64,000 nt of DNA, taken from a phage. Below the pieces are notes generated by a model that did no database searches, was not told where the DNA came from, and saw nothing but the letters and a program-made list of their open reading frames with translations. Of the stretch, positions 44,220 through 61,537 are shown piece after piece (the first letter of the stretch is position 1; every line of letters starts with the position of its first letter). A program made the position numbers and the translations under genes. The stretch is taken from sequence record PZ583738.1; one strand, given 5' to 3'.

Positions 44220-44293
44220 GGCCCTGTAGCTCAATTGGTTAGAGCATCCGGCTCATAACTGGCAGGTTTCCGGTTCAAGTCCGGATGGGGCCA
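44220..44293 (+). tRNA. tRNA with CAU anticodon (Met, or Ile if lysidine-modified)
   Basis: Hand-folded cloverleaf: acceptor ggccctg/tggggcc, D-arm gctc-aattggtta-gagc, anticodon loop cTCATAa, T-arm tccgg-TTCAAGT-ccgga, discriminator A. Confidence 0.8.
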
Positions 44294-44295
44294 CC

Positions 44296-44372
44296 CGGGG
44301 TGTAGCTCAATTGTATAGAGCAACGGTCTTCTAAACCGTAGGTTGTGGGTTAGAATCCCACCACCCCGACCA
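44296..44372 (+). tRNA. tRNA-Arg (anticodon UCU), CCA encoded
   Basis: Hand-folded cloverleaf: acceptor cggggtg/caccccg, D-arm gctc/gagc, anticodon stem acggt/accgt with loop cTTCTaa, T-arm gtggg-TTAGAAT-cccac, then ACCA. Confidence 0.85.
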
Positions 44373-56876: not shown

Positions 56877-57083
56877 ATTGACAATTGAAGGCTCTGATGA
56901 AGCTCTGAAAAGATTTGTTGAATGGTTTAATGGGCCAGGTGAACAAGACTTTCTGGAAGTTTGGGATGGTGGGCAATGGAACGGTAAAGAAATTGTTTAT
57001 CCGACTACCTATATCTCCGTACAAGGTTGTCCTGATGGCCTTCGTTTGGTAGAATATGATATCGCAACTGGCGAGGAAGTGAA

Positions 57084-57087
<4 letters not shown>
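56869..57087 (+). CDS. hypothetical protein
   Basis: Start at ATG MSKLTIEG overlapping previous stop. Confidence 0.45.
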
Positions 57088-57666
<579 letters not shown>

Positions 57667-57667
<1 letters not shown>

Positions 57668-57712
57668 TGTACAAGCAGGTTGAAATGAGTTATGATTATC
57701 CCATCAAACAAA
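57667..57712 (+). promoter_or_regulatory. early promoter / stem-loop cassette upstream of regB
   Basis: GTGTAC, 18 bp spacer, TATGAT, leader ttatcccatcaaacaaaaggag. Confidence 0.45.
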
Positions 57713-57723
57713 AGGAGATAATC

Positions 57724-58182
57724 ATGACTACTATCGATTCAAGTGTTTACATTCGCCGCAATAAACTTCGTCGCATTTTTGAAACGGAGTTCCTCAAAAT
57801 TAATAATGCTATCAACAAGGCTTGTAAAGAAGCAGGCCTTGAGGCATTCTTCATTAAGTACAGTCCACACCTGTTGGACCGTGCAATCCAACGTGAAATT
57901 GATGAACAATATGTTTTTGACTTGTTTGGAAAAATCACACCACATGTAAAAGAAATCGTTGAATTCCTGGAGATGAAACCACTCCCGGAAGTTGAAGCAC
58001 AAATTGACCCGAATGTGAACTACCGTCCACTTCGTCTGGAAATCACAGACAAGAACCTATGGTTAGGAATGACAGTTAACCCAGCTCTTCCTGGGAAGTC
58101 TCCGACCATGTGTTGTCGTATGGCGTTTGTTAACTCTAATCGTCTGGAAGGAAAAATTAGCACAAAAGTGATTTATATCTAA
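57724..58182 (+). CDS. regB: RegB endoribonuclease
   Basis: Start at MTTIDSSV; ...IRRNKLRRIFETEF...KYSPHLLDRAIQREIDEQYVF...LRLEITDKNLWLG...CRMA matches recalled T4 RegB. Confidence 0.88.
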   Translation: MTTIDSSVYIRRNKLRRIFETEFLKINNAINKACKEAGLEAFFIKYSPHLLDRAIQREIDEQYVFDLFGKITPHVKEIVEFLEMKPLPEVEAQIDPNVNYRPLRLEITDKNLWLGMTVNPALPGKSPTMCCRMAFVNSNRLEGKISTKVIYI

Positions 58183-58192
58183 TGAGGAATTC

Positions 58193-58735
58193 ATGAAAAA
58201 AGTAATCGCCACCTTACTATTGACAGTTAGTATGTCTGCCCATAGCGTAGAGCCTACTTTCAGTAATGAACAAATGGGGAACCTCCAATATGCTTATGCG
58301 TTTGGAGAACAGTTCCAGAAAAATGGTAAGTACAAAGAAAATCCGCACCAACATAATGGTTTGGGATATATCATGGCTGGTTTAGCCTGGCAGGAAAGTT
58401 CTGCTGGGATTAATACTGGATTAAATAAAGATAAGCATCATGCATATGGTATATTCCAAAATTATCTTCCAACCGTGCGCGAACGCGTGAAACAGGTTGG
58501 GTGGACAATGACAGATAAAGAAATAATCAAGATGATAAGCAAGAGAGAGAACAGCGCACGCTGGGCTTATATTGAGCTTTCATACTGGTTGAATATTCAT
58601 AAGGGGGATATAAGGAAAACACTATCATCATATAACGCAGGGTGGAATGTGAAAGCTGGTAATACGTATGCTTCACAGGTCCTAGAAAAAGCTAACTACT
58701 TAAAATCACGAGGCCTATTAAAAACGGTGGATTAA
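58193..58735 (+). CDS. secreted lytic-transglycosylase-like protein (SLT-type E-S...G-x-x-Q motif)
   Basis: 180 aa; signal peptide MKKVIATLLLTVSMSAHS; AWQESSAG and HAYGIFQ resemble SLT catalytic region. Confidence 0.55.
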   Translation: MKKVIATLLLTVSMSAHSVEPTFSNEQMGNLQYAYAFGEQFQKNGKYKENPHQHNGLGYIMAGLAWQESSAGINTGLNKDKHHAYGIFQNYLPTVRERVKQVGWTMTDKEIIKMISKRENSARWAYIELSYWLNIHKGDIRKTLSSYNAGWNVKAGNTYASQVLEKANYLKSRGLLKTVD

Positions 58736-58737
58736 AA

Positions 58738-59097
58738 ATGGTAAGAGTTATCACTTTAGCCATAGGGTTAGTATTCAGCATGGGAGGAATAGCTTCAGTA
58801 CAGAGCGATGACAACAACAGCATCATAGAATATGCAACGAGGACGGCTAAAGATTATTGCGCAGCAAGCAATGTGGATTGTGTAATCCAGTTCAGTGCCA
58901 AGCTCACCGCAGCCTATAAAGATGGCCAAAATGATGTTGAACATACGCTTTTGAAAAAGAATGTATTATCCAACAAATATGAAAAGAAATTATTTGAAAT
59001 GGATTGCATTCTATCAAGTGCAAAATATAAGGCGGCCTGCACCAGTATGGTTGACAGGTTAGTGGATTCATATAATAGAGGATTGAACTCTAAATGA
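58738..59097 (+). CDS. hypothetical secreted/periplasmic protein
   Basis: 119 aa; N-terminal signal peptide MVRVITLAIGLVFSMGGIASVQS; four Cys. Confidence 0.5.
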   Translation: MVRVITLAIGLVFSMGGIASVQSDDNNSIIEYATRTAKDYCAASNVDCVIQFSAKLTAAYKDGQNDVEHTLLKKNVLSNKYEKKLFEMDCILSSAKYKAACTSMVDRLVDSYNRGLNSK

Positions 59098-59567
59098 TTA
59101 CCCAGTATATTAAGGGCGATATCGTCGCCCTCTTTCTTAGTGGTAAAAACATTGCACATGGTTGCAATTGCTTCCATACAATGGGTTCAGGCGTAGCTGG
59201 TCAGTTGGCGAAGGCTTATCCAAGGATTTTAGAAATAGACAAAACCTCAACCGACTATGGTTACAGAGGAAAACTCGGTGATATGTCTATTGTTTTCAAA
59301 TATTCCCGAGGTCCGTCAACTTGCTTTAATCTTTACACCCAATATGAACCAGGACCAAATCTTGATTATCATGCTTTAGTAAATTGTATGGTAGAATTAA
59401 ATCGAGTCCTGAGTGAAGGAACACTATTCCGACCAGTGGTTTATATCCCACGGATTGGATGTGGTATTGCAGGTGGAGATTGGGAAAAGGTCTCTATGTT
59501 AATTGATATTTTTACCCCTGACATTGATTTGATAGTGGTGGATTATGAGCCAAGCCCGAATTCTTAA
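59094..59567 (+). CDS. macro-domain protein (putative ADP-ribose binding/hydrolase)
   Basis: 157 aa; GCNCFHTMGSGVAGQL and PRIGCGIAGGDWEKV match the two glycine-rich macro-domain signature blocks. Confidence 0.65.
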   Translation: MITQYIKGDIVALFLSGKNIAHGCNCFHTMGSGVAGQLAKAYPRILEIDKTSTDYGYRGKLGDMSIVFKYSRGPSTCFNLYTQYEPGPNLDYHALVNCMVELNRVLSEGTLFRPVVYIPRIGCGIAGGDWEKVSMLIDIFTPDIDLIVVDYEPSPNS

Positions 59568-59751
59568 AACGGCCAAATGTGAAAAATGTGAATGGCCAGT
59601 AATCGCAGCTTTGTGCAACGATGAAATGGAATGTGAATTTGATTACTGGTGGTACTGTTCTAATAAAGGATGTTCTAATCATAAGGGTGAAGGTTTTCAT
59701 TCTGGTTATTGCGAACATCCTAAATTTGTGCGATATGGGGAACCGAAATGA
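59545..59751 (+). CDS. Cys-rich small protein (possible zinc binding)
   Basis: 68 aa with 9 Cys (CEKCEW, CNDEMEC, CSNKGC, YCEHP). Confidence 0.45.
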   Translation: MSQARILKTAKCEKCEWPVIAALCNDEMECEFDYWWYCSNKGCSNHKGEGFHSGYCEHPKFVRYGEPK

Positions 59752-59933
59752 GTTTAAGCATTAGTCAGAAAAGTAGATTATTTGAGCTTATCCATGAGCT
59801 TTTGGATGAGCATACGGAAGCAAATGCTTTTTATGATGAATATGGCCCGATAGATGCCGACCATCAGGAAGAATTTGCCAATCGATTTGATGCGAAAGAA
59901 AACGAATTAATAGCTTATGTGAATACGCTTTAA
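59748..59933 (+). CDS. small acidic helical protein
   Basis: 61 aa; C-terminal ...KENELIAYVNTL similar to ORFs 61841-62035 and 62035-62217. Confidence 0.45.
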   Translation: MSLSISQKSRLFELIHELLDEHTEANAFYDEYGPIDADHQEEFANRFDAKENELIAYVNTL

Positions 59934-59942
59934 GAAGGTGAT

Positions 59943-60515
59943 ATGGCGAGTTTAATTTATCATTACGCAGCAATGAATGCAGGCAAAACAGCTTCATTGC
60001 TGACTGCAGCTTATTCCTATAAAGAGCGTGGAATGAGTGTGCTTTTGCTAAAACCTGTTATTGATAATCGGGACTCGGAAGGCGAAATTAAATCACGCAT
60101 CGGTATTAGCCAGGAAGCAAACCTGGTAACGGCCGACATGAACCTGTTTGAATTCTATAAATGGGCCGAGTCTCAAAAGGATATCCATTGTGTCCTGGTC
60201 GATGAAGCTCAATTTTTGTTACCAGAGCAAATTGACCAGTTAGCTCAAGTGGTTGATAATTACAATATCCCCGTTATGTGTTACGGGCTAAGAACAGATT
60301 TTCGGGGTCAATTATTTCCCGGTTCGGCCAGACTTCTGGCTATTTCGGATAAACTGGTTGAATTAAAGGGCGTCTGTCATTGCGGCCGGAAAGCAACCAT
60401 GACCGCTCGAGTAATCGACGGTGCTGCTGTAAAGGACGGCGAGCAAGTATTGGTCGGTGGGAATGAATCGTACGTATCTTTGTGCAGAAAACATTGGCTC
60501 GAATTAACAAGCTGA
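59943..60515 (+). CDS. tk: thymidine kinase
   Basis: 190 aa; MASLIYHYAAMNAGKTASLL P-loop, VCHCGRKATMTAR zinc ribbon, LCRKHW; matches recalled T4 Tk. Confidence 0.93.
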   Translation: MASLIYHYAAMNAGKTASLLTAAYSYKERGMSVLLLKPVIDNRDSEGEIKSRIGISQEANLVTADMNLFEFYKWAESQKDIHCVLVDEAQFLLPEQIDQLAQVVDNYNIPVMCYGLRTDFRGQLFPGSARLLAISDKLVELKGVCHCGRKATMTARVIDGAAVKDGEQVLVGGNESYVSLCRKHWLELTS

Positions 60516-60522
60516 GGTTCGC

Positions 60523-60798
60523 ATGGTATACAAGGTTTGGACGTATATCTCTATTTTGATATTCCTGGTTTTGGTTTTTGTTCCTATGCAACAGGACCAG
60601 GAAAGGTATGAGCGCGAAGTCGAAATCGTTGCAAGTACCTATCACTCGTTCAACAAAGAGTGCCCGAATAAAAACGGAATAAGCCTGCAACAAGCGTACT
60701 ATTTGTCAACGATTACCAGCCCAAAACAACGGGTCTGGGTCGAACGTAATTTTGCAAGTTTATTTTCAGAGTACTGCTTTAATTTTAAAAGATTATAA
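60523..60798 (+). CDS. small membrane protein (rI.-1 position)
   Basis: 91 aa; N-terminal TM ISILIFLVLVFV. Confidence 0.5.
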   Translation: MVYKVWTYISILIFLVLVFVPMQQDQERYEREVEIVASTYHSFNKECPNKNGISLQQAYYLSTITSPKQRVWVERNFASLFSEYCFNFKRL

Positions 60799-60870
60799 AT
60801 ACAGTTACTAACTAGTATTCCGCTATGTTAAGGCTGCAAAGCGTAATCATGACCAACAATAGGAGTCCTT

Positions 60871-61164
60871 ATGGACCTTATTCGAGGACTTTCATTAAGT
60901 CTAATAATCCTGGGCTGTTTAGGCCCAAATCTGTCCTCTGCAACAGAGGGGAAGTTTACCCAATATGCAGATAGTGCGATGAAGATTTATTCGCAATTCA
61001 AAGAACCAAGCGTGCACCAATCCGAACAGTTCTGGGCGTTTATCAAGACTGAATGGAACAACAAAAGCCAATGCGAAACTGAAATTACCTGCAAAAGCGA
61101 TGGTAAAGCTGCGGCGAGAGAGTACGCTAAATTAATGAAGGTAAAATTGGAAGATGAAATTTGA
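60871..61164 (+). CDS. rI: lysis inhibition regulator RI (antiholin)
   Basis: 97 aa (same as T4 RI); signal-anchor N-terminus; QSEQFWAFIKTEW and C-terminal AAAREYAKLMKVKLEDE resemble recalled T4 RI; adjacent to tk. Confidence 0.75.
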   Translation: MDLIRGLSLSLIILGCLGPNLSSATEGKFTQYADSAMKIYSQFKEPSVHQSEQFWAFIKTEWNNKSQCETEITCKSDGKAAAREYAKLMKVKLEDEI

Positions 61165-61537
61165 TGATTTCGTAACGGGTCGTGGGTCTGAGGTGGATTC
61201 ATATATTGGGTGGTTGTTAGTCTCTTTGGCTTATTTTAAGTCCGCCCATCTTGAAACCAAAAGTTACGCCCGCCATAAAGCTTATGATTTCTACTTCACA
61301 GAAATCCAAGGTCCACTCGACCAGTTCAGTGAGCAATGGTTAGGTTACAGCGGGAAACAATACAAAGCTGCATTACCGTCCGCCTCGGACTTGCCGAAAG
61401 ATACAATTTTGTTTTTAGATGAAATGATTAAAAGCTCGGAAAGAGTCTATAAAGTTGTACCCAAGGCTATTCAATCGACTCTGGACGATATCGTTGGAGT
61501 TTTCTTTCAGACTAAGTATCTGTTAACACTAGAGTAA
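61154..61537 (+). CDS. hypothetical protein (rI.1 position)
   Basis: 127 aa, followed by intrinsic terminator. Confidence 0.5.
   Translation: MKFDDFVTGRGSEVDSYIGWLLVSLAYFKSAHLETKSYARHKAYDFYFTEIQGPLDQFSEQWLGYSGKQYKAALPSASDLPKDTILFLDEMIKSSERVYKVVPKAIQSTLDDIVGVFFQTKYLLTLE

Follow-up and report, generated by a model that had tools for sequence, protein, structure and literature searches.

The tk.4/adfM ortholog of a T4-like phage is a macrodomain protein with a predicted glutamine-type active site

Gene order and allele divergence around tk.4

The gene studied here lies in the window, a 64,000-nucleotide stretch of phage DNA (record PZ583738.1) numbered from its first letter. A first-pass annotation of the letters had placed a 157-aa ORF at 59094-59567 on the plus strand. 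We found the ORF exactly there, with the DNA reading as had been given and with both of the glycine-rich blocks that had drawn attention to it, HGCNCFHTMGSGVAGQL (residues 22-38) and PRIGCGIAGGDWEKV (residues 119-133). The genes and junctions of the region are as follows.

58738..59097, + strand: vs (valyl-tRNA synthetase modifier), the upstream synteny anchor (PHROG 1256; T4 and SP18 annotations)
59094..59097, + strand: ATGA overlap of the tk.4 start codon with the vs stop codon (sequence and ORF coordinates)
59094..59567, + strand: tk.4/adfM ortholog, a single-domain macrodomain protein (ATG-started ORF, 157 aa)
about 59540..59552, + strand: variable junction at the tk.4 3′ end (blastn breakpoints, translations and annotations)
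59545..59751, + strand: small Cys-rich protein downstream of tk.4, PF23895 Phage_zn_bind (Pfam E 1.6e-29)
59748-59933: second small ORF before tk (ORF list)
59943..60515, + strand: tk (thymidine kinase), synteny anchor (Pfam TK E 4e-58)

Upstream of vs the window encodes RegB (Pfam E 6e-72) and an SLT-like Vs.1, and the order regB-vs.1-vs-tk.4-small tk.x ORFs-tk is common to the window, T4 and the Shigella phage SP18. When the window protein was compared with T4 Tk.4 (NP_049723.1), residues 1-153 aligned to residues 1-153 with 57% identity (E 2e-69). The two proteins are of the same length class (157 and 155 aa, respectively), are encoded at the same place, with vs before and the small tk.x ORFs after, and fall in the same PHROG 335, which the window protein matched at E 6.7e-64. 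The full-length identity, the common gene order and the PHROG assignment together identify the ORF, on these comparisons, as the syntenic ortholog of T4 tk.4, recently renamed adfM. The premise in the first-pass annotation that T4 has no macro-domain gene at this position was therefore mistaken, as tk.4 sits exactly there, and its RefSeq label reads 'phosphatase; contains A1pp phosphatase motif'. The description of the gene as next to tk was approximately right, since two small ORFs (59545-59751 and 59748-59933) separate tk.4 from tk. The first of these is the ortholog of SP18 gp111 (97% identity) and overlaps the tk.4 3′ end by 23 nt; it gave no match when compared with T4 tk.3 and is not T4 tk.3.

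The overlap of the tk.4 start codon with the vs stop codon, an ATGA-type arrangement also present in the T4 and SP18 annotations, suggests that vs and tk.4 are co-transcribed and possibly translationally coupled. A scan of positions 57000-61500 for promoters and terminators revealed no excess of sites over shuffled sequence (12 against 12.7 and 4 against 3.6, respectively), and we therefore make no regulatory claim for this interval.

We found that the 3 kb around the ORF was 98.7% identical to Escherichia phage DK-13 and ~95% identical to SP18, which places the window, by sequence, among T4-like phages of Gaprivervirus type. The identity was unevenly distributed. Against SP18 the DNA identity was 78-79% in tk.4 versus 96-99.7% in the flanking genes, and against vB_YenM_P8 it was 82% in tk.4 versus ~97-99% in the flanks. 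In tk.4 the dS reached 0.60-0.87, against 0.02-0.25 for the flanking genes, and the window allele was otherwise found only in DK-13 (99.4%) and pEC-M719-6WT.2 (96.8%). Since dN/dS was 0.17-0.21 despite this high dS, the gene is functional, and a fast-evolving or decaying tk.4 was ruled out by the same ratio. On these values tk.4 is here an old, divergent allele, one that purifying selection has maintained and that appears to have been swapped as a cassette. The slot behind tk.4 differs between relatives: SP18 and T4 have tk.3 there, DK-13 has an unrelated 58-aa ORF, and in the window and vB_YenM_P8 the slot is empty. The last few residues of Tk.4 vary with its content.

As the ortholog of T4 tk.4/adfM, the gene is already known. 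The A1pp (macro) match of tk.4 orthologs in T4-like phages was published in 2006 (PMC1524935), and a counter-defence role has since been attached to the T4 ortholog. When T4 was put through a transposon screen on DarTG2-expressing E. coli, only tk.4 came out as a significant hit, and a clean tk.4 knock-out was sensitive to DarTG2; the gene was renamed adfM, for anti-DarT factor Macrodomain (bioRxiv 10.1101/2025.11.20.689424). This sensitivity fits the earlier finding that T4 without adfA and adfN was still resistant to DarTG2, for which a further factor had been predicted (PMC11825919); the companion factor adfN is T4 gene 30.3 (bioRxiv 10.1101/2025.11.20.689424), which belongs to a region beyond the part of the genome treated here. 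The anti-DarTG2 phenotype has been demonstrated in T4 only, in a preprint and with one DarTG2 system, and enzymatic removal of ADP-ribose from DNA by T4 Tk.4 is said there only to seem likely (bioRxiv 10.1101/2025.11.20.689424). We found no assay of a T4-type Tk.4 in recent papers on hydrolase specificity (PMC12879935, PMC13036486, PMC11833690). The suggestion in the first-pass annotation that the protein might counter a DarTG-type ADP-ribosylating defence agrees well with these genetics of the T4 ortholog.

Fold and class of the protein

To the Pfam profile PF01661 (Macro) the window protein matched with 28.3 bits (E 1.8e-6; gathering cutoff, 22 bits) over profile positions 2-115 of 118. From an alignment of 54 sequences, AlphaFold2 gave a model with a mean pLDDT of 94.6 and a pTM of 0.89, and this model, together with Foldseek, predicted the three-layer alpha/beta/alpha macro fold. 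When the model was searched against the PDB, 137 matches were obtained at E<=0.001, and the top 20 were all macrodomains of the ALC1/TARG1-like class. Human TARG1 (C6orf130; 4J5R/4J5S) was the top match (E 3e-9, TM 0.72-0.82), and TARG1, Poa1p, the DarG proteins of M. tuberculosis and T. aquaticus, BT1257 and SCO6735 ranked first, the leading matches having a probability of 1.0 and TM of 0.68-0.75. MacroD-type, coronavirus and alphavirus macrodomains ranked below the group of TARG1, DarG, BT1257 and SCO6735. A phmmer search against PDB sequences gave a similar set, with BT1257 (2AFC/2FG1) at E 1e-8, SCO6735 (5E3B) at E 5e-8, Poa1p (6LFU) at E 4e-7, the M. tuberculosis DarG macrodomain (5M3I) at E 4.6e-7 and TARG1 (4J5R) at E 1e-3. 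Since TARG1, DarG, BT1257 and SCO6735 are among both the top fold matches and the sequence matches, the window protein is assigned, on the predicted model, to the ALC1/TARG1-like macrodomain class.

Two loops were conserved as well. Both the GxG loop after strand 2 (G31-S-G33) and the second glycine-rich loop (G122-C-G124-I-A-G127-G128) were invariant or nearly so among 120 homologs. The macro-domain reading of the first-pass annotation, which had named profile searches and structure prediction as its checks, is thus borne out by a profile score above the cutoff, a confident model, fold matches to macrodomains and conserved loops, and we are virtually certain that the protein is a macrodomain and the ortholog of T4 tk.4/adfM. 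The Pfam score, the confident model, the invariant active-site residues and a dN/dS of ~0.2 ruled out both a spurious ORF and a degenerate sequence that merely resembles a macro domain.

The Poa1p match bears on a different reading, by which the protein would be an ADP-ribose-1''-phosphate phosphatase or an enzyme acting on small soluble ADPr derivatives such as Appr1p, O-acetyl-ADPr or ADPr-based immune signals. We regard this as improbable. Both the sequence and the fold searches placed yeast Poa1p, itself an ADP-ribose 1''-phosphate phosphatase, near the top (Foldseek TM ~0.7); H22 of the window protein aligns with Poa1p H23, and an H-x-C-N-C block is common to both. However, the sequence match covers mainly the N-terminal half of the window protein (residues 4-70), and T29, which stands in the column of Poa1p S30, is variable (T in 70 of the 120 homologs). 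The labels 'phosphatase' and 'A1pp motif' carried by T4 tk.4 and many of its orthologs also speak for such an enzyme, but they derive from an old domain name (A1pp = macro) rather than from an assay. To our knowledge, E. coli has no Appr1p-producing tRNA splicing pathway. A comparative-genomics survey argued, in general terms, that phage macro domains act mostly on small soluble ADPr derivatives (PMC9503650), yet the sole known phenotype of an ortholog is specific to DarTG2 (bioRxiv 10.1101/2025.11.20.689424), and an Appr1p phosphatase leaves this unexplained; DarT2 acts on DNA. The processing of NAD-derived signalling molecules, which the first-pass annotation had offered as a further possibility, gained no specific support.

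The predicted active site and its relatives

Residue columns were taken from a MAFFT alignment of 126 sequences, in which the window protein, T4 Tk.4 and their homologs were aligned with BT1257, SCO6735, M. tuberculosis DarG, PhiKZ gp104 and TARG1, and conservation was counted over the 120 homologs. The TARG1 sequence in this alignment was checked only at K84 and D125, both of which fall at the right positions. The following elements were located in tk.4.

59157..59192, + strand: predicted first ADP-ribose-binding loop, residues 22-33, HGCNCFHTMGSG (conservation of H22, N25 and G33)
59340..59342, + strand: Gln83, codon CAA, in the catalytic-Lys column (MAFFT alignments)
59448..59483, + strand: second glycine-rich loop, predicted to bind diphosphate, residues 119-130, PRIGCGIAGGDW (P119, G122, G124 and W130 invariant or nearly so)

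In the first loop, H22 and N25 were invariant in 118 of the 120 homologs, with a gap in the other 2, and G33 was present in all 120. Position 83 was Gln in 120/120 homologs. The same column holds Lys in DarG (K80), TARG1 (K84) and PhiKZ gp104, and Gln in SCO6735 (Gln85) and BT1257, as aligned here; in the phmmer alignment to 5M3I, LYTQYE of the query likewise stood opposite FPTKKH of DarG. A first phmmer alignment had put Cys78, instead of Q83, opposite the Gln of SCO6735 and BT1257, because the length of the loop differs between the window protein and these two. That placement was rejected, as MAFFT with bridging homologs puts Q83 in the Gln/Lys column. Ala126 of the window protein falls at the position of TARG1 Asp125. 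The second loop differs very little from PRIGCGLAGG[KT]W of BT1257 and SCO6735, and the Tk.4 family, SCO6735 and BT1257 have a common signature of H22, C24, N25, N79, Q83, G87 and PRIGCG[IL]AGG.W; DarG and PhiKZ gp104 carry P-T-K and N-G-G-L instead. Judged by these residues, the active site of the window protein is of the SCO6735/BT1257 type and not of the DarG type. Since Gln83 replaces the catalytic Lys and Ala126 replaces the TARG1 Asp, catalysis is probably lysine-independent. T4 Tk.4 also has Gln in the catalytic-Lys column and carries the HGCNCFHTMGSG block unchanged; it differs in the second loop, which reads PRIGAGIGKGNW, and in the C-terminal tail.

No solved structure matches the window protein better in direct sequence comparison than SCO6735 and BT1257 (E 1e-8 to 5e-8), although these two are only 27-30% identical to the window protein and are chromosomal genes of bacteria rather than counter-defence genes of phages. 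SCO6735 has neither the Lys nor the Asp; it hydrolyses ADPr linked to thymidine on DNA and saves cells from DarT (PMC9411070). Its Q85A and Q85E mutants are inactive, and a water-mediated mechanism has been proposed in which Gln85 positions the distal ribose (PMC9411070). Differences from SCO6735 were also found. An extended mobile loop is characteristic of the SCO6735/BT1257 subclass and, with K34 and K89, has been credited with the high activity of SCO6735 on DNA (PMC9411070). In SCO6735 this loop follows the Gln (QHGIYKDSKGLP), whereas the window protein has QYEPGPN, 5 residues shorter. At the position of the DNA-positioning K34 the window protein has S32 (A or S in homologs), the DNA-positioning K89 lies in the loop segment that is absent from the window protein, and Val25, for which a role through its backbone was proposed, corresponds to Gly23.

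The comparison with DarG (5M3I, 5M31, 5M3E) showed the same fold class (TM ~0.73, probability 1.0), and the substrate, thymidine-ADPr on single-stranded DNA, is presumed to be the same. In DarG, however, the catalytic residue is Lys80 ('FPTK') in place of Gln83, and the ~330-aa protein includes a C-terminal DarT-binding domain that the 157-aa window protein lacks, so that DarG profiles were matched over positions 15-146 of 329 and 19-149 of 338 only. The NCBIfam equivalog antitoxin_DarG gave 27.6 bits against a cutoff of 250. Across DarG models the window protein scored 27.6-32.9 bits, T4 Tk.4 30-36 bits and PhiKZ gp104 133-138 bits. No darT was present beside tk.4 in the window, where the neighbours are vs and the zinc-binding small ORF. 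A filing as a DarG homolog or 'orphan DarG' was ruled out by the missing catalytic Lys, C-terminal domain and darT neighbour and by the equivalog score. The weak matches to DarG models count against the function proposed below, as does the absence of the SCO6735 mobile loop and of K34/K89.

PhiKZ gp104, a chimallivirus protein also named AdfM, is likewise a free-standing anti-DarTG2 phage macrodomain. In vitro it clears DNA of the ADP-ribose that DarT2 has attached, and its N23A mutant loses activity, at least in part (PMC13309987). Its conserved N23 aligns with N25 of the window protein, but the two proteins are only 21% identical, and gp104 is of the DarG type, with the P-T-K lysine and the N-G-G-L loop. 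PhiKZ AdfM and T4-type AdfM thus appear, from their sequences, to be independent acquisitions under one name.

Proposed role against DarTG2

Based on the active site and on the genetics of the T4 ortholog, we think it likely that the window protein is a free-standing ADP-ribosylglycohydrolase that strips thymidine-linked ADPr from DarT2-modified single-stranded phage DNA by means of a Gln-type site. The anti-DarTG2 phenotype of the window protein would follow by homology from the 57% identical T4 protein, and we infer that the window protein, and T4-type Tk.4 proteins generally, hydrolyse thymidine-linked ADP-ribose on DNA. In the mechanism that we propose, host DarT2, the toxin of the DarTG2 defence, would attach ADP-ribose to thymidine bases of single-stranded phage DNA. 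The tk.4 product, co-transcribed with vs and made as a free-standing macrodomain, would remove ADP-ribose from the modified thymidines, and replication would be restored. As in the mechanism put forward for SCO6735, the distal ribose would be positioned, together with a water molecule, by Gln83 and Asn25. The protein would in effect be a phage-borne 'orphan antitoxin', and reversal of the modification would be expected rather than sequestration of the toxin, because there is no DarT-binding C-terminal domain.

Protection might instead come mainly from binding or inhibition of DarT2, or from shielding of ADPr-DNA, without catalysis. The dead mutants SCO6735 Q85A, DarG K80A and TARG1 K84A all inhibit DarT in vitro, and the SCO6735 mutant does so most strongly (PMC9411070). 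The window protein, however, is without the domain through which DarG binds DarT, and N25, Q83 and both glycine loops vary little or not at all across the 120 homologs, which points to selection for catalysis. We consider protection by binding or shielding very unlikely.

The protein could also have a wider range as an eraser and reverse the ADP-ribosylation of proteins or RNA, acting on the marks of host ART toxins or of Alt, ModA and ModB, or on uracil- or phosphate-linked ADPr in RNA, with protection from DarTG2 as one facet. T4-like phages encode ADP-ribosyltransferases of their own, which is in favour of such a role, but Alt and Mod modify arginine, and we know of no cleavage of this linkage by the ALC1/TARG1-like macrodomain class. 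The closest characterised relatives are SCO6735 and TARG1, whose substrates also include proteins and RNA with uracil-linked ADPr (PMC9411070; PMC13036486). TARG1, whose Lys84/Asp125 catalytic dyad is replaced by Gln83/Ala126 in the window protein, also removes thymidine-linked ADPr (PMC9411070). Against a broader role, SCO6735 showed no activity towards 2'-OH RNA ADPr nor, in one assay, towards 5'-phosphate ADPr (PMC11833690), and tk.4 is dispensable for T4 on plain K-12, DarTG2 being the specific condition under which it is needed (bioRxiv 10.1101/2025.11.20.689424). Broad erasure as the main function is therefore unlikely in our view, while erasure of protein or RNA ADPr is plausible as a side activity of a DNA glycohydrolase.

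A wider reading of the family can be offered only tentatively, and we hold it to be possible rather than probable. T4-type AdfM may be a mechanistically distinct, lysine-independent and Gln-based thymidine-ADPr DNA glycohydrolase whose source lay in bacterial macrodomains of the free-standing kind, not in DarG, and whose recruitment was independent of that of the DarG-like AdfM of PhiKZ. Its diverged alleles may be shuffled as cassettes among near-identical Gaprivervirus genomes, possibly to match DarT2 variants or extra substrates such as uracil-ADPr RNA.

As a discovery the gene carries little weight, and the value of the analysis lies in correction and refinement. What is new is the predicted Gln-type anatomy of the active site in T4-type Tk.4. 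Homologs were detected by tblastn in 2735 of 50,697 phage records, several of which already name the product a 'macro domain protein', and many database records for Tk.4-type proteins bear the label 'phosphatase' or 'hypothetical protein'. The latter can be re-annotated as AdfM-type anti-DarTG2 macrodomains. In summary, the name AdfM now covers two separate sub-lineages, a Gln-type in T4-like phages and a Lys-type, DarG-like one in PhiKZ.

regB, vs.1 and vs, and the tRNA genes

The genes that precede the macrodomain gene tk.4 are as follows.

57667-58182, +: regB ORF as mechanically listed, 171 aa, with a GTG start at 57667
58193-58735, +: Vs.1, matching SLT transglycosylase weakly (16 bits, under the cutoff)
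58738-59097, +: Vs, valyl-tRNA synthetase modifier

The Pfam RegB match starts only at residue 23 of the 171-aa ORF, and regB is annotated as 152-165 aa in relatives; the gene probably starts at an ATG inside the listed ORF. The N-termini of Vs.1 and Vs both read as hydrophobic and signal-peptide-like (MKKVIATLLLTVSMSAHS..., MVRVITLAIGLVFSMGGIASVQS...), an unexpected start for Vs, whose stated target is a synthetase in the cytoplasm. The vs gene was reported to be conditionally important in minimal medium (HIDEN-SEQ preprint, bioRxiv 10.1101/2025.11.20.689424). Only two tRNA genes were found in the window, whereas SP18, a related Shigella phage, has three (Met, Asn, Arg) annotated at the corresponding place.

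44220-44372, +: adjacent tRNA genes Met-CAT and Arg-TCT

A hairpin within tk.4 and the slot 3′ of it

Two further features lie within tk.4 and at its 3′ end.

59113-59141, +: GC-rich hairpin (AGGGCGATATCGTCGCCCT) and then a T-rich run, 20 nt into the tk.4 coding sequence
59545-59751, +: short Cys-rich ORF with a match (E 1.6e-29) to Pfam PF23895, ‘Phage zinc binding domain’

A ‘terminator’ is annotated close to tk.4 in some related phage records; terminator-like sites around the gene (57000-61500) were no more numerous than in shuffled sequence. T4 tk.3 was rejected as the counterpart of the Cys-rich ORF, whose ortholog is SP18 gp111. Between tk.4 and this ORF there is a variable gene slot (~59540-59552). 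Genome comparison revealed that the slot holds tk.3 in T4 and SP18 and an unrelated 58-aa ORF in Escherichia phage DK-13, and that it is empty in the window and vB_YenM_P8. The C-terminal tail of Tk.4 varies with the slot occupant.

Divergence of the tk.4 allele

When the window was compared with SP18 and vB_YenM_P8, nucleotide identity was 78-82% for tk.4 (59094-59567) and 96-99.7% for the flanking regB, vs.1, vs, tk.2 and tk (within 57600-60600). Furthermore, dS was 0.6-0.87 for tk.4 versus 0.02-0.25 for the flanks, with a tk.4 dN/dS of ~0.2. tk.4 is a divergent allele in a region (57600-60600) otherwise near-identical to these relatives, and its divergence against conserved flanks looks like cassette-like allele exchange.
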